Shown: positions 696 through 63,068 of the stretch, one piece after another
Layout of the letters: each line of letters begins with the position of its first letter
Position numbering within the stretch: position 1 is the first letter of the stretch
NCBI GenBank assembly: GCA_017436645.1
Contig: JAFSCR010000030.1
Span: forward strand, 10,083-74,082
Reading direction: 5' to 3'
Length of the DNA stretch: 64,000 nucleotides
From: Clostridia bacterium
GTDB taxonomy: Bacteria; Bacillota; Clostridia; UMGS1883; UMGS1540
The notes under the pieces: model-generated
Told to the model about the DNA's origin: nothing
Database searches by the model: none
What the model saw: only the letters and a program-made list of their open reading frames with translations
Made by a program: the position numbers and the translations under genes

Positions 696-3600
696 ATGGC
701 AAGAAAAATGAAGACCATGGACGGTAACAACGCCGCCGCATGGGCATCCTATGCCTTTACCGATGTTGCGGCAATCTACCCGATTACCCCGTCCTCGGTT
801 ATGGCAGAGGTTACTGACGAATGGTCAGTAGACAAAAAGAACAATATGTTCGGACAGCCTGTAAAGGTTGTTGAAATGCAGTCTGAAGCAGGTGCTGCAG
901 GTGCTGTGCACGGCTCCCTTGCAGCCGGTGCTCTCACCACTACCTACACCGCTTCTCAGGGTCTGCTCCTTATGATTCCGAATATGTATAAGATGGCAGG
1001 TGAACTTCTGCCTTCCGTAATTCACGTATCGGCTCGCTGCGTAGCAAGCCATGCGCTGAACATTTTCGGCGATCATTCTGACGTTATGGCATGCCGCCAG
1101 ACCGGTTATGCAATGCTCTGCTCCAACAGCCCCCAGGAAGTTATGGACCTTGGCGCAGTAGCACACCTTGCAGCTATTAAGGGAAGAGTGCCTTTCCTCC
1201 ACTTCTTTGACGGTTTCCGTACTTCTCACGAAATCGATAAAATCGAAGTCTGGGATTATGAAGACCTGAAGGAAATGGTTGATATGGATGCAGTACGTGC
1301 ATTCCGCAACGGTTCTCTCAATCCCGAACACCCCGTTCTCCGTGGTAGTGCACAGAACCCTGACATCTTCTTCCAGAACCGTGAAGCATGTAACAAATTC
1401 TATGAAAACGTGCCCGCAGTTGTAGAAGAATACATGAACCGCGTAAACGCCAAAATCGGCACAAACTACGGTCTTGTAAACTACTACGGTGCACCCGATG
1501 CCGAAAAGGTTATCGTTGCAATGGGCTCCATTTGTGATACCATTGAAGAAACCATTGATTACCTTACAGCACGTGGCGAAAAGGTAGGTCTTATTAAGAT
1601 TCGCCTTTACCGTCCGTTCCCCGTTGAAGCATTCCTTAAGGCTCTGCCCGCTACTTGCAAGAAGATTGCAGTACTCGACAGAACAAAGGAACCCGGCTCC
1701 ATCGGTGAACCTCTGTATCTTGACGTTTGCGCCTGCTTTACCGGCAAGGCTGATGCACCCACCATCATCGGCGGCAGATACGGTCTCGGTTCCAAGGATA
1801 CTGTTCCTGCTGATATTATTGCAACTTACAAAAACCTGGATGCAAAAGAACCGGTTCGCGGCTTCACACTTGCAATCACAGACGATGTAACCAACCTTTC
1901 TCTTCCCAGAGAAGAAAATCCCGATACATCCGCAAAGGGTAACACCGCATGTAAGTTCTGGGGTCTCGGCTCTGACGGTACCGTTGGTGCTAACAAGAAC
2001 TCCATTAAGATTATCGGTGACCATACCGACCTTTATGCACAGGCATACTTCTCCTATGACTCTAAGAAGAGTGGCGGTATCACCGTTTCTCACCTTCGCT
2101 TTGGTGAAAAGCCCATCAAGTCCACTTACCTCATCAACAAGGCAAACTTTGTAGCATGTCACAATCCCTCTTATGTGGACAAGTATGACATGGTACAGGA
2201 CCTCGTTCCCGGTGGCAAGTTCCTCTTAAACTGTGCATGGGATGTAAACGAGCTCTCCGACCGTCTGCCCGCAAAGATGAAGCGCTATATTGCAGAGAAC
2301 AACATTTCTCTCTACACTATTGACGCTATCGGCATTGCAAAAGAACTTGGTCTTGGCAACAAGACCTCCATCGTTCTCCAGTCTGCATTCTTTAAGCTCG
2401 CAAACGTAATTCCCTTTGAAGATGCAGTTGGCTATATGCGTGACGCTGTTGTTCGCTCCTTCGCCTCCAAGGGTGAAAAGATTGTAAGCATGAACCATGC
2501 TGCAATTGAAGAAGGCGCAAAGAACATCAAGGAAATCGCTGTTCCTGCTGACTGGAAGGATGCCCAAGATGCAGAAAAGGCTGCAGCTGCCGTTCCGTCC
2601 TTCGTAAAAGATATCTTAAAGCCCTGTGAAAAGCAGGCAGGCGACAAGATTCCCGTATCTACATTCGTAGACTATGTGGACGGTCACCTTCCCCAGGGTA
2701 TGGCTGCTTATGAAAAGCGTGGCATTGCAGTTGACGTTCCTGAATGGATTCCCGAAAACTGTATCCAGTGTAACCAGTGTTCTCTCGTTTGTCCCCATGC
2801 TGCTATCCGTCCTGTTGTTATGACGGCTGAAGAAGCTGCCGCAGCACCGCAGAACATGAAGCACAAGAAGATGAACGGTAAGGACCTCGGTCACTATGAA
2901 TTCGGCATTGCCGTAACGGTTATGGACTGCTCCGGCTGTGGCAACTGCGCTAAGGTTTGCCCCGCTAAGGAAAAGGCTCTCGTTATGAAGCCCATCGATT
3001 CCCAGCGTGACCAGCAGGCATGCTTCGATTATGCAGTAAAAGAAGTTTCCGATAAGGAAGAGCTTCTCGCACTGCCCATTAATGTTAAGAACTCTCAGTT
3101 CCACCAGCCGCTCCTCGAGTTCTCCGGTGCTTGTGCAGGCTGTGGTGAAACACCTTATGCAAAACTCGTTACCCAGATTTGCGGCGACAGAGCATATATC
3201 TCTAACGCTACAGGCTGTTCTTCCATCTGGGGCGGCAGTGCTCCCAGCACACCGTACACCACAAACAAAAAGGGTCATGGTCCCGCTTGGGCAAACTCCC
3301 TCTTTGAAGATAATGCAGAACACGGTCTGGGTATGGCAGTAGGCGCAAAGCAGCTGCGTGAAAGACTTCGCGGTCAGATTGCAGCACTCTCTTGCGAAAC
3401 TGTAAAGGCAGCAGCTGAAGAATGGAATGCAACTTACGATGACGGCGATCTCAATGCCAAGGCTACAGAAGCACTTATCGCAGCACTTGAAGAATGCGGC
3501 AGCGAAGAAGCTAAGGAAATCCTTGCATTTAAGGAATACCTTTCCAAGAAGGCTGTTTGGATCTTCGGTGGTGACGGTTGGGCATACGATATCGGTTACG

Positions 3601-4202
3601 GCGGTCTTGACCACGTTCTCGCTTCCGGCGAAGATGTAAACGTTCTCGTATTCGATACAGAAGTTTACTCCAACACCGGCGGTCAGGCTTCCAAGTCTAC
3701 CCCGACCGGCGCTGTTGCACAGTTCGCTGCAGGCGGTAAGCCCATCAAGAAGAAGAACCTTGCTGAAATGGCAATGAGCTATGGCTATGTATACGTAGCA
3801 CAGGTTGCACTCGGCTATGATATGAATCAGACGGTTAAGGCAATAAAAGAAGCTGTAAGCTACAATGGTCCTTCCATTATCATCGCTTACGCTCCGTGTA
3901 TCAACCACGGTATTAAGGGCGGTATGACCGATACCCAGAAGATTATCAAAAATGCTGTTTTGGCCGGCTACTGGCACACCTTCCGTTTCGATCCGAGACT
4001 GAAGGAAGAAGGCAAGAATCCGTTTACAATGGATTCCAAGGCTCCCGATGCTTCTTACAGAGACTTTATTATGAACGAAGTTCGTTACAGTTCTCTTGCA
4101 CGTAAGTTCCCCGAAAGAGCAGAAGAACTCTTCCAGGAAGCTGAAAAGCAGGCAAAGGAAAAATACGAGCATTGGACAAAGTTCGGCAAACTCTTCGAAT
4201 AA
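696..4202 (+). CDS. nifJ: pyruvate:ferredoxin (flavodoxin) oxidoreductase, single-chain PFOR
   Basis: The 1168-aa ORF carries a 2x[4Fe-4S] ferredoxin domain (CIQCNQCSLVCPH, CSGCGNCAKVCP), a TPP-binding region (GGDGWAYDIGYGG) and an N-terminus typical of NifJ/PorA-type PFOR. Confidence 0.97.
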   Translation: MARKMKTMDGNNAAAWASYAFTDVAAIYPITPSSVMAEVTDEWSVDKKNNMFGQPVKVVEMQSEAGAAGAVHGSLAAGALTTTYTASQGLLLMIPNMYKMAGELLPSVIHVSARCVASHALNIFGDHSDVMACRQTGYAMLCSNSPQEVMDLGAVAHLAAIKGRVPFLHFFDGFRTSHEIDKIEVWDYEDLKEMVDMDAVRAFRNGSLNPEHPVLRGSAQNPDIFFQNREACNKFYENVPAVVEEYMNRVNAKIGTNYGLVNYYGAPDAEKVIVAMGSICDTIEETIDYLTARGEKVGLIKIRLYRPFPVEAFLKALPATCKKIAVLDRTKEPGSIGEPLYLDVCACFTGKADAPTIIGGRYGLGSKDTVPADIIATYKNLDAKEPVRGFTLAITDDVTNLSLPREENPDTSAKGNTACKFWGLGSDGTVGANKNSIKIIGDHTDLYAQAYFSYDSKKSGGITVSHLRFGEKPIKSTYLINKANFVACHNPSYVDKYDMVQDLVPGGKFLLNCAWDVNELSDRLPAKMKRYIAENNISLYTIDAIGIAKELGLGNKTSIVLQSAFFKLANVIPFEDAVGYMRDAVVRSFASKGEKIVSMNHAAIEEGAKNIKEIAVPADWKDAQDAEKAAAAVPSFVKDILKPCEKQAGDKIPVSTFVDYVDGHLPQGMAAYEKRGIAVDVPEWIPENCIQCNQCSLVCPHAAIRPVVMTAEEAAAAPQNMKHKKMNGKDLGHYEFGIAVTVMDCSGCGNCAKVCPAKEKALVMKPIDSQRDQQACFDYAVKEVSDKEELLALPINVKNSQFHQPLLEFSGACAGCGETPYAKLVTQICGDRAYISNATGCSSIWGGSAPSTPYTTNKKGHGPAWANSLFEDNAEHGLGMAVGAKQLRERLRGQIAALSCETVKAAAEEWNATYDDGDLNAKATEALIAALEECGSEEAKEILAFKEYLSKKAVWIFGGDGWAYDIGYGGLDHVLASGEDVNVLVFDTEVYSNTGGQASKSTPTGAVAQFAAGGKPIKKKNLAEMAMSYGYVYVAQVALGYDMNQTVKAIKEAVSYNGPSIIIAYAPCINHGIKGGMTDTQKIIKNAVLAGYWHTFRFDPRLKEEGKNPFTMDSKAPDASYRDFIMNEVRYSSLARKFPERAEELFQEAEKQAKEKYEHWTKFGKLFE

Positions 4203-4212
4203 TAAAATTAAG

Positions 4213-4241
4213 AAAGGTCGCAATTTGCGGCCTTTCTTTTT
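4213..4241 (+). terminator. rho-independent terminator after PFOR
   Basis: A GC hairpin (aaaggtcgcaaatttgcggccttt) is followed by a T-run (ctttttaat). Confidence 0.6.
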
Positions 4242-7774: not shown

Positions 7775-7870
7775 TTTTCTTCCTCCTTTTTTATTTAGTA
7801 TATCACAAGGGCGGAAAAAGTGCAATTTTTTTATGAATAGAATATGAACAGATTTCTGTCTTTAATAAAA

Positions 7871-7899
7871 TTGACAAACCCGGAGAAATATGGTATACT
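7871..7899 (+). promoter_or_regulatory. consensus sigmaA-type promoter (TTGACA-17-TATACT) driving the truncated sigG-like ORF
   Basis: TTGACAaacccggagaaatatggTATACT, followed by RBS AGGAGA 9 nt before the ATG at 7915. Confidence 0.5.
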
Positions 7900-7914
7900 G
7901 CAAGGAGAAAGAAA

Positions 7915-8430
7915 ATGCCGCTCTTTTTTCACGTTCCTACGTTCATGCCGATGATTATAGGTGAAATCAGGCGGTATCTTCGGGATAATAATGCCATCCG
8001 TGTCAGCCGTTCTCTGCGGGACACGGCATACCGTGCTCTCTCCGTAAAAGAGCGCCTTTCCAAGGAAAAGGAGCCCACGGTGGAGGATATTGCACGGGAG
8101 ATGGGCATTAAAAAAGAAGAAGTTGTGTTCGCACTTGATGCAATCCTCGATCCGGTTTCCCTTTTTGAACCGGTATATCATGACGGCGGTGATGCGCTGT
8201 ATGTGATGGATCAGGTGAGTGACACACGCAGTACCGACGAAAACTGGACCGAAACCATTGCGCTGAAGGAAGCCATGCGAAGGCTTTCGGAACGGGAAAA
8301 GCTTATTTTGAATCTTCGCTTTTTCCAAGGGCGGACTCAGATGGAAGTGGCGGAGGAAATCGGCATCTCTCAGGCACAGGTTTCAAGGCTTGAAAAAAGT
8401 GCGCTGGAGGATATGCGCCGACATATTTAA
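7915..8430 (+). CDS. sigG: sporulation sigma factor SigG-like protein lacking the N-terminal regions 1.2-2.3 (only regions 2.4/3/4 are encoded)
   Basis: The 171-aa product is near-identical in pattern to the C-terminal two thirds of Bacillus SigG (PMIIGEIRRYLRDNNAIRVSRSLRD ... RFFQGRTQMEVAEEIGISQAQVSRLEKSAL). An in-frame stop lies at 7834-7836, so no longer N-terminus is possible. Confidence 0.7.
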   Translation: MPLFFHVPTFMPMIIGEIRRYLRDNNAIRVSRSLRDTAYRALSVKERLSKEKEPTVEDIAREMGIKKEEVVFALDAILDPVSLFEPVYHDGGDALYVMDQVSDTRSTDENWTETIALKEAMRRLSEREKLILNLRFFQGRTQMEVAEEIGISQAQVSRLEKSALEDMRRHI

Positions 8431-8462: not shown

Positions 8463-8846
8463 ATGCATAAATTATGGGTGGCACTTGTTGCCATGGTATT
8501 TGTTCTGGCAGGCTGTAACGTGCAAAAAATTCCGAATCAGGCAGAGGGCAATGCGCCGGCCATCACCCCTTCTGCTACCCCGGGAACCACGAACTTTTTG
8601 CCGAGACTGGATGTTTCGGGCAATATTATTACAACCGTATATGCCGAGGGCGTGTTTATAAAAGCGGAAGAAGGCACACTTTTTATGACAGAAAACGGGA
8701 AAGAGAGGAAGTTTATCCTTTCCGCCCGTGCTGAAAAGGATATTACGGCCTTGAAAATTACGGAAGGCACAAAGATTATCGTAAACTATAACCGAGTGGA
8801 TGAGGGGCAGGAGGCAGAAGCCTTAAGCCTTGAAAAGCTCTTATAA
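8463..8846 (+). CDS. hypothetical lipoprotein (signal peptide with LAGC lipobox)
   Basis: MHKLWVALVAMVFVLAGC is a lipoprotein signal peptide. RBS GAGGAAGGAG is present. No recognisable domain was found. Confidence 0.65.
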   Translation: MHKLWVALVAMVFVLAGCNVQKIPNQAEGNAPAITPSATPGTTNFLPRLDVSGNIITTVYAEGVFIKAEEGTLFMTENGKERKFILSARAEKDITALKITEGTKIIVNYNRVDEGQEAEALSLEKLL

Positions 8847-14390: not shown

Positions 14391-15493
14391 TTATTCTCCA
14401 TTTTTCCAAATCATTTCGTGGTCAAAAAGTGTATCTAAAAGCACCAGCGCCGTCACAGCTTCCATGACGGGCACGGCACGGGGGACGATGCAAGGGTCGT
14501 GTCTGCCGTGGACGGAAACGGGCGTTTCCGTTTTTTTCGAAAGGCTGATGCTCTTTTGTTCTTTACCGATAGATGGTGTGGGCTTTATGCCGACTCGGTA
14601 GACAAACGGCATGCCTGTGGTAATCCCGCCTAAAGTCCCGCCACACCGATTGGTTTCCGTTTTTGCGGTGCCGTTTTCATATAGAAAGGCATCGTTATTT
14701 TCGCTGCCGTAAAGAAGCGTCGCCTCAAAGCCGTTGCCAAATTCAATTCCCCGGATGGCAGGAATGCCGAAAACGGCATGGGCCATTTTGCCTTCCAGAC
14801 GGGAAAACATAGGCGAGCCAAGCCCGGCAGGAAGACCCATGGCACTAACTTCGATTATGCCACCGACGGAATCGGCTTCCTCTCGTGCCTTGTCGATTTC
14901 TGCCTGCATTTTTTCACCGGCATCATCGTCAAATGCGGGGAACGGTTTTCCGGCAACAGAGCGAAGGGCAGGCAGGTCGCTTTCTCTATAGCATGGAGCC
15001 TTGCCTTCCACACCGTGAACCGAGCGGATATGGGCAAAGACCTCGATGCCTTTTTCTTTCAGCATCTGGAGAGCGATGCCGCCGGCTATCGCAATGGGCG
15101 CGGTCAGCCGACCGGAAAAGTGGCCGCCGCCACGCATATCGGCATAACCGCCGTATTTGATTTCCGCCGTAAGATCCGCATGGCCGGGGCGGGGAATGTC
15201 AAGGTGGGCGTTATAATCGGCACTTCTTGTGTTGGTGTTTTGGATGATGGCCATAATGGGACTGCCTGTCGTTACATTTTCATAAACACCGGATAAAAAC
15301 AGGGGCGCATCTCCTTCTTTTCGGGGCGTGGAGAAACGGTTTTGCCCCGGTGCACGGCGCTTAAAAAAGCGGAAAGTGCTTCCATATCAATGGTAAAGCC
15401 TGCAGGAATGCCGGAAAGAATCATGCCGATGGCGTCGCCGTGAGATTCTCCTGCAATGGAAAACTTGATGTTTTTGCCGAGCGTATTACTCAT
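14391..15493 (-). pseudogene. aroC: chorismate synthase interrupted by a +1 frameshift in an A6/T6 homopolymer (15363-15368), or a sequencing error at that homopolymer
   Basis: The N-terminal 73 aa (15272-15493, MSNTLGKNIKFSIAGESHGDAIGMILSGIPAG) and the C-terminal 287 aa (14391-15254) are in different frames. Removing one T from gcttttttaagc restores ...[46 protein letters not shown]..., a canonical AroC sequence. Confidence 0.8.
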
Positions 15494-21235: not shown

Positions 21236-21270
21236 AGAGGGTGTAAATTTTACACCCTCTTTTTTATTTG
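21236..21270. terminator. bidirectional terminator hairpin
   Basis: aagagggtgtaaattttacaccctctt with flanking A/T runs. Confidence 0.6.
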
Positions 21271-21767
21271 GCTTCTACAATTTTAATATTTGCGGCCGGA
21301 ATGCCTGTTTGCCCTGTGATAATGTCCACAATTTTGGCAACATCCGCCTCTTCCAGTTTTTCCGCTTTCACGATGACGGTGGCACTTTCATCATGAATAT
21401 ATACAACCGCATCGGAAAAGCCTTTGGCCATAATCATGCTTTCCACGCTGGATTCTGTTTCGGAAAGGCGGGAAAGCTTTACCATTTCCGCCTCTGCCAT
21501 GGCACGTCCTTCTGCACTTGTGGAAGTATCCTGTACCATGGTCTGGAGAGAGGCAACGCTTTGCGACCTGCCGATTTCACGTTCCAGCCTTGCTTCGCTG
21601 AAGAAATCTGACGTGTCCGAACTGTCATTGCTAACAAGACGGACCTCTCCGAGCGTTTCACCCGGGCCGTTTTCTGAATTTCCGTAGGAAAAATTCAGAT
21701 ACCCTGCAATCGCCACCATGGCGGCAATCCCGACAATGAGGACTTGTTTCTTTTTCAGTACAACCAT
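21264..21767 (-). CDS. spoIIIAH: stage III sporulation protein AH
   Basis: It is the last gene of the spoIIIA operon. It has an N-terminal TM helix, an acidic linker and a C-terminal YscJ/FliF-like domain. Confidence 0.8.
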   Translation of the reverse strand: MVVLKKKQVLIVGIAAMVAIAGYLNFSYGNSENGPGETLGEVRLVSNDSSDTSDFFSEARLEREIGRSQSVASLQTMVQDTSTSAEGRAMAEAEMVKLSRLSETESSVESMIMAKGFSDAVVYIHDESATVIVKAEKLEEADVAKIVDIITGQTGIPAANIKIVEAK

Positions 21768-21783
21768 CTAAACCATCCTTTCT

Positions 21784-22260
21784 TTATTTCAAAGGGAATA
21801 CTGCAATGCTGTATGGCGGGGCACCGGAAAGCGCACCGACAGCGGACAGAATATCCGCACGGACGCTTTTGCTTTTTGCACCCTCTGCCACAACAATTAC
21901 GCCCCGCACTCTGGGGCTGATTTCTTTTGTGGCAGCAACTTTGGCGGAAGAGCCGGAGCCTAAAGTTACCACGGAATCCGAATCGCCGTGAGAGTTTACG
22001 GCGGGCACGGTTTCAGGGCCGGTCTCATATGTGACTGCCACCCGCACCTTGCCCACGCCTTGTATATTGGATAATATACGCTCAAGCTTTTTTTCAAGAA
22101 TCTGACCGTCCGGCGGGGACGTGGAAATGCTTTCCGTTTTTTCTTTTGGACTGCAACCGGCAAACGCCAATAACAGGATACAGATACTTACTATGCCGTA
22201 AAGGAGATAAATATTCTTCTTTTTCGAGAAAAAAGTTTCCGCATTATCGAATTTCCACAC
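21784..22260 (-). CDS. spoIIIAG: stage III sporulation protein AG
   Basis: An N-terminal TM helix and the C-terminal RGVIVVAEGAKS motif are typical of SpoIIIAG. Confidence 0.85.
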   Translation of the reverse strand: MWKFDNAETFFSKKKNIYLLYGIVSICILLLAFAGCSPKEKTESISTSPPDGQILEKKLERILSNIQGVGKVRVAVTYETGPETVPAVNSHGDSDSVVTLGSGSSAKVAATKEISPRVRGVIVVAEGAKSKSVRADILSAVGALSGAPPYSIAVFPLK

Positions 22261-22663
22261 AGCTTCTTGGCACCTCCAGTTCTATTGTAATATAATGCAT
22301 CATGCGATTTGTAACGTTTCCCGAAAGAACAATGCGGGAAACGGAGAAATTTTTGCCCAGGGAAACTTCTGCAGTAGCATCGCCGAATTTTTCTATGGAA
22401 GCCTCTATACGGCGGACATATTCTTCGGCCACCTTCGTTTCAAAGGCATGTTCGGATGCGGCTGCTTCCACTTGGGGGAGAAGGTCGTAAAGCGCCTCGC
22501 CGCCGCCACTAAAAAGAGAAATGCATGGCAGAAGAACGGATGCGGTGACGGCAAGGGATAAAAGCGGTGCGGCAAACCGACGGACCTTGCCCGCAGGCAG
22601 CAGAAATTCAAAAACAGCACTGAAAAGCGAAATGGAAAGTAACCTTAAAAGATAAGCTCTCAC
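22244..22663 (-). CDS. spoIIIAF: stage III sporulation protein AF
   Basis: The product has two N-terminal TM helices and a soluble C-terminal domain, and sits at the expected operon position. Confidence 0.8.
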   Translation of the reverse strand: MRAYLLRLLSISLFSAVFEFLLPAGKVRRFAAPLLSLAVTASVLLPCISLFSGGGEALYDLLPQVEAAASEHAFETKVAEEYVRRIEASIEKFGDATAEVSLGKNFSVSRIVLSGNVTNRMMHYITIELEVPRSCVEIR

Positions 22664-23769
22664 CTTAGCATCACCCCCATGTCACCTATGCGGAGAAGCA
22701 TCCCTACGGAAAGCATGGAAAGCATACCTGCCGCCGCCGTCATGCCCGAGAGGGCAGAGAGCATATCCGCCATGTCGGAAAAGGCCGAAGAGATACGTGT
22801 ATCAGCGGCGGTGCTTGACAGGGCGGCAGCCAGACGATAGGCAAAGGAATGGAGAATGGTTTTTATAACGGGATATAATGTGAGAAGGAGAATGAGAAGC
22901 ATGCCGGCACCCCCTGCTGCATTTTTAACGGTCAAGGCGCTGAAACTGACGGCTTCCGCCGACTCGGACAATATGCCGCCAAGGACCGGAACAAGACTGC
23001 CAACGGCAAATTTGATGCCCTTTGCCGCCACACCGCCCAAAGTGCCGGCGGCATACCCCGTTACGCTGATGACAGCCCCGAAAACCGTCAGGCTTCCCGT
23101 CACAACAAAAAATGCACACTTTCTGATGAGGGCGGAAAGCTTTCTGAGAACGGTATGGGAGGAAAGACCGGAAATCACCGAAAGGGAGAGAGAAACATAA
23201 AGGGAGGGAATCCCGATGCGGGAAAGAAGGAGCGAGGAAGCGGAAGAGGCAGCCAGAAGAAGGGGGTGCACCGCTGCGGCGCCACCGCCCGTACCGACAG
23301 ACAAAACGGCCAGCGAAGGCATAACCGAATTTGTAAATGCGGCCATGTCCTGCGAAAATCCGCGTGCCAGCTCTGCCGCATCGCCTACCGCTGCAATCGC
23401 AAGGCCAATGGATGCGGCATACGTGATTAAAAATGCCATTTCCGAAGTACTGCCATCACCGCCGAGCCGCCCGAGAAGGCTGCAAAGCACCGCAACGGCT
23501 GCCGCTGTGAGGGGAACAGAGAGGCTTGTGCCTGCTTCCTGAAAGAAAAACGAAACGAGGCCGTTCCAAAGACGGTGCAGAAAGCCTGCGTCACTGTTTT
23601 CAGACAGAGATTGTACCGCCGAGCGGAAGTCAAAATCCGGCATGACAGACTGAATTTGTGCCTGCCCCCGGGGACTGAGACCGTCGGCAGCATTGTATAT
23701 TTCTTCTTCGGCTGTGGCCGAGAGGGGGAAAAGACAAACAAGAAGTAAAGCAATAAATATTTTTCGCAT
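22660..23769 (-). CDS. spoIIIAE: stage III sporulation protein AE (polytopic membrane protein with a signal peptide)
   Basis: It has a signal peptide and multiple TM helices and sits at the expected operon position with a 4-nt overlap. Confidence 0.85.
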   Translation of the reverse strand: MRKIFIALLLVCLFPLSATAEEEIYNAADGLSPRGQAQIQSVMPDFDFRSAVQSLSENSDAGFLHRLWNGLVSFFFQEAGTSLSVPLTAAAVAVLCSLLGRLGGDGSTSEMAFLITYAASIGLAIAAVGDAAELARGFSQDMAAFTNSVMPSLAVLSVGTGGGAAAVHPLLLAASSASSLLLSRIGIPSLYVSLSLSVISGLSSHTVLRKLSALIRKCAFFVVTGSLTVFGAVISVTGYAAGTLGGVAAKGIKFAVGSLVPVLGGILSESAEAVSFSALTVKNAAGGAGMLLILLLTLYPVIKTILHSFAYRLAAALSSTAADTRISSAFSDMADMLSALSGMTAAAGMLSMLSVGMLLRIGDMGVMLR

Positions 23770-23782
23770 CGTATCCTTCTTT

Positions 23783-24169
23783 CTAGGGGATTACCGTGAT
23801 AACTGTTTCAAAAAACGAAGTGATGAGAGGCAGAGAAATTCCAAGAATAATGAGTTTCCCCGCCATTTCCAGATTTTGTGCAAGAGCGCCCTCGCCTGCA
23901 TCCCGACAAAGTGCCGCCGTACACTCTGTAATAAACGTGATGCCGATTACTTTTAAAAGCGCATCCATAAACGGAATGTGCAGACTGACTTTTTCCGACA
24001 TTGCCTCGGCAAACAGAAATGCATCCCGAAGATAGGGAATTGTATAAAACAGCAAAAGGCATCCGCCTGTAAGGGTGACGGGCACGGCGAGAGGACTTTT
24101 ATACTGTTTTAAAAGAACGGCGGATAATGCCGTGACAACCGAAATGGCGCAAAGCCGCAGGATTTCCAA
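23783..24169 (-). CDS. spoIIIAD: stage III sporulation protein AD
   Basis: The 128-aa product has four TM helices and the SpoIIIAD pattern. Confidence 0.85.
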   Translation of the reverse strand: MEILRLCAISVVTALSAVLLKQYKSPLAVPVTLTGGCLLLFYTIPYLRDAFLFAEAMSEKVSLHIPFMDALLKVIGITFITECTAALCRDAGEGALAQNLEMAGKLIILGISLPLITSFFETVITVIP

Positions 24170-24182
24170 CTTTAAATGCCTC

Positions 24183-24377
24183 CTAAAGACCGAAAATGCT
24201 TTTTATGGTTTCAAAAAGGGTACTGATTTCTTTGACAAGAATCATCAGCACCACGATAAGGCCGGCAAGGGTAGTCAGCATTGCCTGCTCTTCCCGTCCG
24301 CTCCGGACGAGAAGCTGATGCAGAACAGAAACAATAATGCCGATGGCGGCAATGCGAAAAATCAAATCTACGTCCAT
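24183..24377 (-). CDS. spoIIIAC: stage III sporulation protein AC
   Basis: The 64-aa product has two TM helices and begins MDVDLIFRIAAIGI. Confidence 0.85.
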   Translation of the reverse strand: MDVDLIFRIAAIGIIVSVLHQLLVRSGREEQAMLTTLAGLIVVLMILVKEISTLFETIKSIFGL

Positions 24378-24386
24378 ATTCGCTCC

Positions 24387-24869
24387 TTAAAAAAGTAAAA
24401 TCACAACGAGCAGCCCAAGCATCATGCCGCCGCCTGAATATAGGCGGCCGAGCCGTGCAGCATCGAGCTGGGCGGCTGAATAGATTGCCGAAAGCCTTTT
24501 GCGACATGCAGAAAGGTTTTGCAGCTGTCCTCTTTCATCGGTGGCTGTAAGACCGACGCTGAAAACAGAGAGGACCTCCCGTTCCGCTTTTTCCAGATGA
24601 TCTTCTTCTATTGCTTTTGAAAAGGCGGAGCCTATGTCCGTTTCCATTGCAAGACGTGCCGCATTTTGGAAAAGCGGGTCATATCTGCCTGCTTCCGAAA
24701 GGGCGAAGGGGATGGGAGAAAGGCAGGTGCGGATTTCGCCTTCCATGCATAAAAGACCGTCCAAAATTTTACCGAGCCGTGTGGCACGGCTTTTCAGGCG
24801 GACTCGTTTTCCAAGCCCGATGCACCACATACTGCCTATAAGCAGAACAGCCACTGCACACTTTAACAT
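24387..24869 (-). CDS. spoIIIAB: stage III sporulation protein AB
   Basis: The 160-aa product carries a GspF-like domain flanked by an N-terminal and a C-terminal TM helix. Confidence 0.85.
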   Translation of the reverse strand: MLKCAVAVLLIGSMWCIGLGKRVRLKSRATRLGKILDGLLCMEGEIRTCLSPIPFALSEAGRYDPLFQNAARLAMETDIGSAFSKAIEEDHLEKAEREVLSVFSVGLTATDERGQLQNLSACRKRLSAIYSAAQLDAARLGRLYSGGGMMLGLLVVILLF

Positions 24870-60234: not shown

Positions 60235-63068
60235 AAATAAATTTAATATCGTTTCAGGACAAGGCTGTTAAAGACCTGCGTAAGAAAATGGCGGTCGCTC
60301 AGAGCAGCTATAAAATAGAAAAAAGCACGCAGGTTGTTTCGCTTCAGGCACCTACAGGTGCAGGCAAAACAATTATTGCAGCAGCGGTTATTGAGGATAT
60401 TTATTTTGGCTCGACACTTGCGGATGGAACTACATTCGACGAACAGCCGGAAGCAATTTTCGTGTGGCTTTCTGACTCGCCGGAGCTCAACACGCAATCA
60501 CGTCAAAAGATTGAGCTTAAAACGAGCAAACTGAAGTATGGTCAGTGCGTGACAATCGAAGACGATTCCTTTGATATGGAAATGCTTGAGGACGGACATG
60601 TTTATTTTCTGAATACACAGACAATAAGTAGAAGCGGCCGACTCACTCAACATTCGGATAATAGACAGTATACAATATGGGAAACTCTTGATAACACCAT
60701 ACAGAACAAATCCGACAGACTGTATTTTATTATCGATGAAGCGCACCGTGGTGCAAAAAGCAAACGCGAAGCAGGCACCGATACCACAATAATGCAGCGC
60801 TTTATCAAAGGGTATGAATATACAGAAAATAATATCAAAAGAAAAATGCGTTCAATGCCTGTCGTTCTTGGCATAAGTGCGACAGCAGAACGTTTTAACA
60901 CTTTGATTAAGAACACCGGCGATGTTGTGCTAAGACAATATGTTGTTACAGCTGATGAAGTCAGAAGCTCCGGCCTTTTAAAAGACAGAATTGTTATCAC
61001 CTATCCGGAAGACCCGACCAAAAACAATGATATGGTGCTTCTGGAAGCAGCCGTGGAAGAATGGCTGAAAAAGTGTAAACGATGGTATCAGTATACTTAC
61101 GAACAGCATTATGCAAACGTTGACCCCGTTCTTGTGGTGCAGGTTTGCAAAGGAAGTGGCGGTGCTGTTTCTGATACCAACCTTGAAGATGTGCTTGCAA
61201 AGATTGAAGAAAAAGCGGGCATTCATTTCAAGGCTGGAGAAGTTGTACATTGCTTCGGAGAAGGAACAACACTTGAATTATGCGGACTTAGTATTCCTCA
61301 TGTGAAAGCATCTGAAATAGTTGATGATCATAAAATCAAGGTGGTTTTCTTCAAGGAAGCATTGTCTACAGGTTGGGACTGTCCGAGAGCAGAAACAATG
61401 ATGTCCTTTGCGGTAAGAAACGACCCGACTTACATTGCACAGCTACTTGGCAGAATGGTGAGAACACCACTTCAAATGCGCGTGCAGCGTGATGAATTCT
61501 TAAACGATGTAAAGCTTTATCTTCCCCATTTTGACAAGGATAACGTTAAAAAGGTTGTAGAGGAACTTCAGAGTAATGAAGGCGGTGACATTCCCACAGA
61601 GATTAACGGTGAATCTTTGGAGGAACCGACTTACATTACATGGACGGTACACACACCTCGTAGAAATCGTCAAAACGAGCAAAACCCGGATCAAATATCA
61701 TTATTTTATGACCAGCTGGCAGAGCAGAATGATAATACTGTTCCATATAATCTCCCGACAGTCGCGAACAATCCTACAAGAGTGTTAAATTCCGGAGACA
61801 ATGTGCCGGAATACATACCACCACAGACGGTTACTGTTCCGGCATCTCCTGTAGCACAGCAACAGACTCCTTTTGAACCGACACCGGCAGGAAAACAGCT
61901 TGAGTTTACTGTAGACATAGACCGAGTTGAAATAATAAACTTTATAAATTCAAAGGGGTATTTGACATATCTTGTAAGACAAGATCGCATAAATGATTAT
62001 TTAAAATCATTGCTCGACCTTGCAACATTGCTGACAATTAATGTCATTTATCAGGGAGCACGTGATGAAGTTATTGACGATATAATAGCTCTCATTCGTG
62101 AATATATTGAAGAATTGCATCACACAGGCAGATACAAAGAACTTGCTGAGCATATTTTGCAGCACAAGTTGTCAGTACAAATATTTGACCCGTTCGGAAA
62201 AGATGTTACAGAAAACTATACCAATGACTTTACTTTGATGTCAGAAACTGACCTTGACAGGCAGTTAAGAAATGCAGATGCCAAAATGGGCAGATATGGT
62301 TTTCCCAATATTTACGGCGGCAGATATTACGATGAAGACAATCCAAATGCTCACAAAATTGATTGTATTCTTTTTGCCGAGGATGAAGCATGCCGAACAA
62401 AGCTGGGTGAGTATGCAAAGGAAAAATTATACGAATTCGTTGCTAAGTTCAGACTCGCAATCGTTAATAAATCCGATGCGTGCAAAAAGAAATATCACGA
62501 CATTCTTGCAGATAGTGATATTGTCAGCGAACAGATTTTTGCTATTCCCGAAAACATCAGTGTAAGAGAAGACCCCGAAGGCAAAGAGTATGAAAACCAT
62601 TTGCTTGCATCTGAAACAACAGGCATTGCAAGAATCAAGTTAAACGGCTGGGAAGCAGACCTTATCGAAGAAGAATCCCGCAGAAATGACTTTGTTTGCT
62701 GGCTCAGAAATCCTGCACGTGCTTCATGGGCACTGTGTTTACCTTACGAAATAGGCGGAGAAAAGAAATCCTTCTATCCGGATTTTCTGATTGTACGCAG
62801 CGATAATGAGCTTGATTATGTCGTTGATATTCTTGAACCTCATGGAAATCAGTATAGCGACAATCTTCCAAAAGCAAAAGCCCTTGCGGAATATGCAAAA
62901 AAGGAAGACCGTATTGGAAGAATACAGCTTATCCATAAGAGCAGCGATGCTGCTGGCGTCAGCCATTTCAGACGTTTGGATTTAACAAACCTTACAGTCC
63001 GTGACAAAGTTCTTCAGGCAATGAATAATGACGAGCTTGATCATATTTTTGATACAGACGGAATATAA
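60231..63068 (+). CDS. res: Type III restriction enzyme Res subunit (SF2 helicase plus C-terminal nuclease)
   Basis: Walker A LQAPTGAGKT, DEAH box IIDEAHRG and motif VI QLLGRMVRTP are present. The C-terminal region has a PD-(D/E)xK-like motif (YPDF...DILEP). It overlaps mod by 4 nt (ATGA). Confidence 0.85.
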   Translation: MKINLISFQDKAVKDLRKKMAVAQSSYKIEKSTQVVSLQAPTGAGKTIIAAAVIEDIYFGSTLADGTTFDEQPEAIFVWLSDSPELNTQSRQKIELKTSKLKYGQCVTIEDDSFDMEMLEDGHVYFLNTQTISRSGRLTQHSDNRQYTIWETLDNTIQNKSDRLYFIIDEAHRGAKSKREAGTDTTIMQRFIKGYEYTENNIKRKMRSMPVVLGISATAERFNTLIKNTGDVVLRQYVVTADEVRSSGLLKDRIVITYPEDPTKNNDMVLLEAAVEEWLKKCKRWYQYTYEQHYANVDPVLVVQVCKGSGGAVSDTNLEDVLAKIEEKAGIHFKAGEVVHCFGEGTTLELCGLSIPHVKASEIVDDHKIKVVFFKEALSTGWDCPRAETMMSFAVRNDPTYIAQLLGRMVRTPLQMRVQRDEFLNDVKLYLPHFDKDNVKKVVEELQSNEGGDIPTEINGESLEEPTYITWTVHTPRRNRQNEQNPDQISLFYDQLAEQNDNTVPYNLPTVANNPTRVLNSGDNVPEYIPPQTVTVPASPVAQQQTPFEPTPAGKQLEFTVDIDRVEIINFINSKGYLTYLVRQDRINDYLKSLLDLATLLTINVIYQGARDEVIDDIIALIREYIEELHHTGRYKELAEHILQHKLSVQIFDPFGKDVTENYTNDFTLMSETDLDRQLRNADAKMGRYGFPNIYGGRYYDEDNPNAHKIDCILFAEDEACRTKLGEYAKEKLYEFVAKFRLAIVNKSDACKKKYHDILADSDIVSEQIFAIPENISVREDPEGKEYENHLLASETTGIARIKLNGWEADLIEEESRRNDFVCWLRNPARASWALCLPYEIGGEKKSFYPDFLIVRSDNELDYVVDILEPHGNQYSDNLPKAKALAEYAKKEDRIGRIQLIHKSSDAAGVSHFRRLDLTNLTVRDKVLQAMNNDELDHIFDTDGI

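Follow-up and report, generated by a model that had tools for sequence, protein, structure and literature searches.

A truncated sigG gene and its surroundings

The window analysed here, a stretch of DNA of 64,000 nucleotides in all, carries on its plus strand an open reading frame (ORF) of 171 codons, protein accession MBQ7037310.1, that is related to the C-terminal part of the sporulation sigma factor SigG. The ORF, the signals in front of it and the first gene behind it are as follows.

7871-7899, plus strand: sigma-A-type promoter, with the -35 element TTGACA at 7871-7876, a 17-nt spacer and the TG-extended -10 element TATACT at 7894-7899
7903-7917, plus strand: AGGAGA ribosome-binding site (RBS) at 7903-7908, 6 nt 5' of the ATG at 7915-7917
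7915-8430, plus strand: SigG-fragment ORF, 171 aa
within 7915-8430, plus strand: non-homologous 10-aa leader MPLFFHVPTF, encoded in part by the P arm of the recombination scar described below, followed by M and SigG regions 2.4-4.2
7948-8427, plus strand: sigG-derived coding part, PMIIGEIRRYL to MRRHI, with region 2.4, region 3 (Pfam, aa 43-88) and region 4 (Pfam, aa 120-168)
8463-8846, plus strand: small lipoprotein-like ORF, 127 aa, found 3' of sigG or of its 3' fragment in all related loci

The NCBIfam SigG model TIGR02850 aligns residues 11-171 of the ORF with model positions 92-254 of 254 (E-value 6e-84, 281.5 bits), and SigG, at 281 bits, is a better match than SigF (187 bits) or SigB (80 bits). 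Identity to bona fide SigG proteins is 74-78%, and the nearest solved structure is that of sigma-F (1L0O chain C, residues 86-241). In Pfam, region 3 (PF04539) and region 4 (PF04545) are both matched; region 2, which is responsible for core binding and melting of the -10 element (PF04542), has no Pfam match in the ORF, and homology to SigG begins only at PMIIGE. The scores fall short of the cut-offs for full-length SigG, both for TIGR02850 (281.5 versus 457 bits) and for the NF006071 equivalog (279.5 versus 372 bits). Lacking region 2 and scoring below these cut-offs, the ORF is not a bona fide SigG. The original prediction, made from the sequence alone, of a SigG fragment devoid of regions 1.2-2.3 agrees with the restriction of the TIGR02850 match to positions 92-254 and with the missing Pfam region 2; likewise, the in-frame stop that it had placed 78 nt upstream is indeed there, 26 codons before the ATG. 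The identical protein (P0001) recurs in several metagenome samples and in one NCBI MAG.

The sigma-A-type promoter and AGGAGA RBS of the original prediction are also confirmed: the promoter agrees with the consensus at 11 of 12 positions, with a TG before the -10 hexamer, and the RBS is spaced 6 nt from the ATG. Downstream, the fragment, the lipoprotein-like ORF (which has a weak LytA-lipoprotein match), mutS2 and a Dabb-domain ORF extending to 11540 are separated by gaps of only 12-32 nt. All four genes are probably served by this single consensus promoter, and co-transcription of the fragment with the lipoprotein-like ORF in particular is probable. The promoter may equally be there to drive the downstream lipoprotein-like ORF, mutS2 and Dabb genes.

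Upstream of the fragment lie divergent genes for an OmpR-type response regulator (RR), a histidine kinase (HK) and HtrA, together with PFOR; the HtrA/two-component surroundings, in place of spoIIGA-sigE, had thus been read correctly. A minus-strand TTGCAC-17-TGnTATACT sequence is the promoter of the RR-HK-HtrA operon. Between the two divergent promoters lies the direct repeat ATGAA-N6-ATGAA (TATGAATAGAATATGAAC), in an arrangement that covers 7834-7852 and 7790-7825 of the window; the block is also kept in two related loci, L001 and L022. The repeat resembles an OmpR-type response-regulator box and, by its sequence and position, could act on both promoters.

Two other gene arrangements in the window deserve mention. 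The spoIIIA operon (21264-24869, minus strand) consists of AB, AC, AD, AE, AF, AG and AH, with no spoIIIAA; the gene upstream of spoIIIAB is a divergent 613-aa ORF with no family match. The AB and AE products score far below the NCBIfam cut-offs (51 versus 146 bits and 156 versus 247 bits, respectively). An AA-less spoIIIA operon is also present at L002 (3085-6727), where the SigG fragment shares 85% identity with that of the window. The chorismate synthase gene aroC, on the minus strand, is divided into two ORFs, at 14391-15254 (287 aa) and 15272-15493 (73 aa). It is split in L009 as well and undivided, with 367 aa, in L010, which comes from the same species in another sample; the split may be due to a frameshift, to polymorphism between strains or to faulty assembly.

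The start of SigG homology is a recombination scar

The position at which homology to SigG begins falls within a short composite sequence.

7927-7966, no strand assigned: attR recombination scar, the joint of a P-type and a B'-type half-site
7927-7947: P-type half-site, with TTTCAC at 7927-7932, a 10-nt spacer and TCATG at 7943-7947
7948-7949: probable crossover dinucleotide CC, in a Pro codon
7951-7966: B'-type half-site inside sigG, with ATGA at 7951-7954, a 6-nt spacer and GTGAAA at 7961-7966

In the alignment, all loci with only the C-terminal half of sigG (hereafter, the C-half), the window included, have in common the sequence TTTC(A/G)C-N10-(T/C)CATG, followed immediately beyond the junction by CCNATGA-N6-GTGAAA. 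Full-length genes at the same place read ...TAYGSNGTN up to the junction and CCN after it, that is, ...TTYTCNACNTAYGSNGTN and then CCNATGAT. The scar contains inverted repeats, an inner pair TCAT/ATGA and an outer pair TTTCAC/GTGAAA, and the distance from outer to inner repeat is 10 nt on the element side versus 6 nt on the gene side. P-type and B-type half-sites of serine integrases are expected to differ by just such a 10- versus 6-nt offset. Comparison of the att arms demonstrated that the P' arms of attL mirror the P arms, and among 52 distinct P arms the information content is highest at TTTC and near the core, with the window matching the consensus. Moreover, the same junction adjoins genes for large serine recombinases (LSRs) in L014, in L087 and in 54 metagenome loci. 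Because the crossover falls in the CC of a Pro codon, proline is found in both halves of the interrupted gene.

We consider it well supported that the homology start of the fragment is the attR of an LSR family that targets sigG at adjacent Val and Pro codons. This origin of the breakpoint had been missed in the original prediction. In the window, only about 25 nt of the P arm of the element are left, joined to core chromosomal DNA.

Elements that split sigG in related genomes

A search of 5.8 billion proteins yielded, besides the identical protein, about 30 further C-half clusters of 159-178 aa that are 77-100% identical to the fragment; all of these begin with (M/V)PMIIGEIRRYL, behind unrelated short leaders. 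A single close relative is full-length (P0014, 259 aa, 90% identical, encoded at locus L013). When the first 99 residues of P0014 were used as the query, the best 120 matches were all short proteins, and these include at least 96 clusters that consist of the N-terminal half (N-half) only, ending in ...FSTY(A/G)VP and a few unrelated residues. A single exact breakpoint that is seen from both sides and in many lineages points to site-specific recombination and not to random deletion.

The candidate recombinase adjoins the breakpoint in several of these relatives. At L006, the N-half is followed directly by a gene for a 472-aa LSR and by defence genes, and at L014 (from IMG/VR) and L087 (a GTDB MAG) an LSR gene stops 10-17 nt 5' of the MPMIIGE C-half. 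The junction-adjacent LSRs of L014, L087, L006 and L108 form one family, with 36-78% identity among them; these sigG-targeting enzymes have a resolvase, recombinase and zinc-ribbon architecture and are about 29-32% identical to the integrases of A118 and phiFC1. Both halves are captured on the 60,979-bp contig IMGVR_UViG_3300045988_022179, where the N-half occupies 121-396 (L105, 121-396) and the C-half 60,482-60,973 (L014, 10001-10498) on the same strand, and where the serine recombinase gene stops 15 nt before the C-half. This contig is a complete prophage of about 60 kb that splits sigG.

Such junctions are numerous. The junction motif CATGCCNATGATHATHGGNGARAT was detected in 100 metagenome-contig loci, nearly all of which continue into an intact C-half of 160-186 aa. 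Among the 82 junctions with at least 600 nt of upstream sequence, 54 have an LSR of the sigG-targeting family at 10-140 nt, on the same strand. A junction common in human gut, LSR-bearing species reads ...GGATAGCTGTTTTTCCCCTTTGAACGTTCATGCC..., and unannotated 'Bacteriophage sp.' records from human faeces carry LSR and C-half together. Searching genome contigs with the C-half produced, among the matches listed, one close relative of the window (L022), one LSR-bearing case (L087) and otherwise ordinary full-length sigG. There are also N-half loci without a neighbouring LSR (L005, L017 and L019). These loci suggest that LSR prophages and other elements commonly integrate into sigG in gut Clostridia, making the gene an apparent hotspot. 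An N-terminal half lying across a mobile element, which the original prediction had named as the finding that would speak for a split gene and against a truncated factor, is therefore real in many relatives, such as the prophage with 60 kb between the halves; it does not apply to the locus in the window, which has neither an element nor an N-half.

Other arrangements around sigG were observed as well. Just 5' of attR, in L110, L153, L154, L161, L184 and L198, which have no adjacent LSR, a conserved ORF that starts with MTRKQAL (MTRKQAL...PFTGWSERTIFDTIDQF) lies on the opposite strand; in L184, it is found beside a ParA-like gene. The ORF probably marks the distal end of elements that integrated in reverse orientation, as at L006 and L108, and these elements are possibly ICE-like. 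In L117 (Ga0183095_10584, about 2870-4240), both halves of sigG are intact with only about 600 bp between them; the insert contains one small minus-strand acetyltransferase-like ORF and no recombinase, and is either a miniature intervening element or what is left of a larger one. L005 (1-10318) is an N-half-only locus with ftsK and bacA within 10 kb of the N-half, on the opposite strand. Compared with the loci in which bacA-ftsK directly precede the C-half (type B, below), this layout may have come about by an inversion that had one of its ends in sigG.

In the clade of the window the element and the 5' half are gone

The loci without a recombinase that are most relevant to the window represent two contexts. 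In type A (the window, L009-L012, L001 and L022), the divergent RR-HK-HtrA operon is followed by about 75 nt that contain the promoter and then by the scar. In type B (L002-L004, L102 and L103, 79-85% identical), the stop codon of an ftsK/spoIIIE gene lies 19-52 nt before the ATG, immediately adjoining the P arm in L002 and L103; in this layout, the fragment would be expected to be co-transcribed with ftsK. The genes 3' of the fragment, namely, the lipoprotein-like ORF followed by amylase, leuA or mutS2, correspond to those that come after the full-length gene of L013, which indicates that the fragment sits at the original sigG locus of the host. The possibility that the C-half is a phage-borne gene, prompted by the 'Bacteriophage sp.' records, was rejected for the window on the same evidence, the host genes downstream being those found behind the full-length gene.

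The missing parts were sought in several ways. With eight different N-halves as tblastn queries, no SigG N-half was detected from -17 to +56 kb of the locus; nor did tblastn reveal any other sigma-like or region-2-like sequence in the 64-kb window, and the flanks hold no region-2-like partner. No LSR or element DNA was found in the window or within 17 kb upstream, and core genes (RR, HK, HtrA, PFOR and others) abut the scar. Among the 5.8 billion proteins, the best N-half is only 72% identical to that of P0014, with no closer match. In full-length SigG proteins, N-half identity tracks C-half identity, reaching about 87-92% where the C-halves are 85-95% identical. Given that the C-half of P0014 is 84-93% identical to the fragments, an N-half identity of about 85-92% would be expected, against the 72% of the best one found. 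At least in the assemblies sampled (MAGs and metagenomes), this clade probably lacks its N-half. For the few clusters considered, the N-half accessions (MBQ2861412, MBQ4118582, MBQ6700692, MBQ8595576, MBE6914567 and MBE6997389) are far from MBQ7037310.1. No homologue of the LRR protein upstream of L013, through which the attL side might have been reached by synteny, occurs in the database or at any of the loci, and GC content provided no discrimination for pairing N-only with C-only loci.

The gene in the window is interrupted at an att site with inverted half-sites, but with no element or recombinase at the locus it stands outside the class of gene-intervening elements. The most fitting description is that of an orphan attR half that has been domesticated.

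The sequences around the scar are conserved unevenly. In the P arm, the motifs for LSR recognition and their spacing are kept in both recombinase-less contexts while the sequence of the spacer varies, and this retention hints that attR may still be in use. The -35 and TG-extended -10 hexamers are preserved in the type A loci L001 and L022, with diverged spacer and leader; this promoter conservation is based on three type A loci (the window, L001 and L022) that are fairly close kin. The AGGAGA RBS and ATG at 7903-7917 are confined to the species of the window. The start context differs in L022, L001, L002 and L103, and relatives without the RBS/ATG of the window type would need to use an ATG in the P arm or other start codons.

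The fragment is under purifying selection

Pairwise dN/dS values (Nei-Gojobori) are 0.036 between the window and L022 (dS 1.06) and 0.027 between the window and L001 (dS 2.0); they amount to 0.04-0.06 between the window and L102 or L103 and do not exceed 0.11 elsewhere among the recombinase-less loci. Between types A and B, synonymous changes have reached saturation. All six recombinase-less loci share the same first 30 codons (region 2.4 into 3.0), and no frameshift or stop occurs in six species-level relatives or in the approximately 30 protein clusters. We compared per-site divergence in 32 short C-terminal proteins, three of them partial in that they keep part of the N-terminal half, with that in 86 full-length SigG proteins and obtained a Spearman correlation of 0.73. 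Mean pairwise differences in region 2.4 are 0.029 in the short and 0.020 in the full-length proteins, and the region 3.2 finger FEPVYHDGGDA is invariant in both sets. Furthermore, the distance of the fragments from standard SigG does not exceed that of their full-length sister P0014.

These comparisons show strong purifying selection on a fragment that is not a decaying pseudogene. The suggestion in the original prediction of a decayed sporulation gene does not hold up against dN/dS values of 0.03-0.1, the absence of frameshifts and a constraint profile like that of full-length SigG. Being intact under selection, the fragment probably still has some role.

Origin and possible roles of the fragment

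The origin of the ORF as the attR-side 3' part of the host sigG, left after integration of an LSR element, is well supported. In this account, an LSR-bearing mobile element integrated at the attB of sigG, between the Val and Pro codons of FSTYAV and PMIIGE at the boundary of regions 2.3 and 2.4. The element, its recombinase and the 5' half were later lost from the locus in the lineage of the window, with the attR-side 3' part staying in place. To judge from the signals in the DNA, the fragment would now be transcribed from the conserved sigma-A-type promoter and translated from the ATG, giving a predicted N-terminally truncated sigma-G with regions 2.4, 3.0-3.2 and 4. Such a product would keep the surfaces that contact the -35 and -12/extended -10 elements, the RNA polymerase flap, the active-site channel and anti-sigma factors. 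Because regions 2.1-2.3, the main core-binding and DNA-melting parts, are absent, the fragment would not be able to start transcription by itself.

The interpretation that we rank first, and hold tentatively, is that the product is a free-standing, non-melting sigma fragment comprising regions 2.4-4.2. A module of this kind may sit on sigma-F/G-type promoters, on core polymerase or on anti-sigma factors, and the forespore regulon would then be modulated rather than driven by it. The decoy of the original prediction, a sigma fragment that does not initiate, would be of this kind and is possible. The interpretation comes first because the absence of an N-half and of an LSR agrees with it, as does the vegetative type of the promoter. 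Counting against it, the constraint profile is the same as in the complete, initiating sigma-G, as one would expect of a fragment that continues to act together with a sigma-2 domain. The conserved attR motifs, the start contexts that are not conserved, and a promoter that is perhaps kept for the lipoprotein-mutS2 genes also weigh against it. In a broader formulation, a phage integration created a sigma-G fragment that the host then domesticated, either as the large subunit of a two-piece forespore sigma factor or as a non-melting sigma that acts on sigma-F/G promoters, RNA polymerase or anti-sigma factors; this we regard as possible, with considerable doubt.

The foremost competing explanation is that the split sigG is still functional, with the N-half (regions 1.2-2.3) and attL located elsewhere in the genome. 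A trans-acting LSR could rejoin the DNA by inversion or excision, or two polypeptides could combine to form a two-piece sigma-G. Production of the C-half would then be constitutive, and the N-half would provide the developmental control. Such an arrangement would account for per-site constraint like that of full-length SigG, with invariant region 2.4 and sigma finger, and for the persistence of the half-site motifs and spacing of attR in two different flanking contexts. Both halves are retained in many other lineages, and the N-half loci without a neighbouring LSR are also in its favour, as is the position of the full-length L013/P0014, which is the sister of the group of the window, closer to it than the FtsK-linked truncated group; this position fits precise excision in the L013 lineage. 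Nevertheless, despite the approximately 30 C-half clusters of the clade, the 5.8 billion proteins yielded no N-half that exceeds 72% identity to that of P0014, none is encoded from -17 to +56 kb, and the N-half accession numbers examined are distant from that of the ORF. Excision would, in addition, delete core genes, sigma-G works in the forespore, that is, the germ line, and we found no precedent for a sigma factor split inside the region 2.3/2.4 helix. On balance, we consider a still functional split gene unlikely.

It is far less plausible that the fragment is an inert remnant, a piece of a pseudogene that is transcribed only since the promoter serves the downstream lipoprotein-mutS2 operon. 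The lack of region 2 precludes sigma action of the fragment alone, downstream genes are tightly packed behind it, translation signals vary among the relatives, and the absence of spoIIIAA from the spoIIIA operon could mean that sporulation is eroding. All of this is outweighed by dN/dS of 0.03-0.1 at dS of at least 1, by reading frames free of frameshifts and stops in six species-level relatives and about 30 clusters, and by a divergence from standard SigG no greater than that of the full-length sister; we saw no sign of an overlapping DNA-level function that could explain the conservation.

Equally improbable is an origin without site-specific recombination, in which sigG lost codons ~17-98 through an internal in-frame deletion and retained its first start codon: upstream 'MVYC/MIYCNKVKI' peptides (P0004, P0005 and L022) are weakly similar to the SigG N-terminus MYYNKVEICG, but the junction is a canonical P-type half-site common to LSR-bearing prophage junctions, the putative old ATG falls within the -10 box, the window does not share the reading frame with L022 or L001, and the FtsK-linked relatives lack that upstream sequence yet have the same junction. 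The survival of the old SigG N-terminus upstream of the fragment is thus largely refuted by the anatomy of the att site.

Implications for sporulation

Split sporulation genes of the sigK/skin type are the textbook case of developmentally programmed DNA rearrangement. To our knowledge, all described split cases are in mother-cell genes, where loss of the element is free of cost to progeny. In the relatives of the window, a forespore gene, sigG, is often cut at one exact site by a dedicated recombinase family. The question that follows is how, or whether, such lysogens sporulate. Either excision takes place in the forespore or before sporulation, or the lysogens are blocked in sporulation; this would be a phage regulatory switch of a kind with no described counterpart among the mother-cell genes. 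The window would represent a later stage, in which the element is gone and the orphan 3' half is preserved across species by selection. Such preservation points either to a sigma fragment that has its own function or to a two-piece sigma factor, and each would be new for sporulation sigma factors. With the att site, the fragment and the family of recombinases now defined, both readings can be tested directly.

Comparison with known systems

SigG acts in the forespore, the germ line, and the established targets of intervening elements that are listed next are mother-cell genes. Known sporulation-gene-intervening elements include skin in sigK (with the recombinases SpoIVCA in B. subtilis and CD1231 in C. 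difficile), SPbeta in spsM, vfbin in spoVFB, gin in gerE and yin in yabG (PMC10747680, PMC5595907). The phenomenon in the relatives of the window adds a new member to this class, in that a sporulation gene, in this case again one for a sigma factor, is split by an LSR-carrying prophage or prophage-like element, the att sites have inverted half-sites and both gene halves are intact. They differ in the target, which is the forespore gene sigG as opposed to the mother-cell genes of the listed cases; in the literature searched, we found no report of a sigG-intervening element. The locus in the window departs further from the class, as it has no element, recombinase or 5' half locally and consists of an attR scar and a selected 3' half only.

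The integrases of A118, which targets comK, and of phiFC1 share with the sigG-targeting LSRs the resolvase, recombinase and zinc-ribbon build and integration inside a conserved regulatory gene; unlike these, they use another attB, their kinship is distant and no such gene is present in the window.

Sigma factors of two subunits are represented by sigma-O (YvrI) with RsoA (YvrHa) of B. subtilis and by gp55 with gp33 of phage T4. In these pairs, too, function is divided between a region-2-like and a region-3/4-like part, and the ORF in the window would be the larger, region-4-bearing piece. Their partners are known and co-regulated, in contrast to the window and its flanks, where none was found, and the split in the window lies within the region 2.3/2.4 helix and was made by a mobile element.

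Finally, phage-encoded SigF/SigG-like sigma factors lower sporulation (PMC9429907). Those factors are complete phage genes, whereas the window holds the 3' part of the host's own sigG. The two cases are alike in linking phages with forespore sigma factors, and a protein of the type encoded in the window could likewise disturb the sporulation programme.
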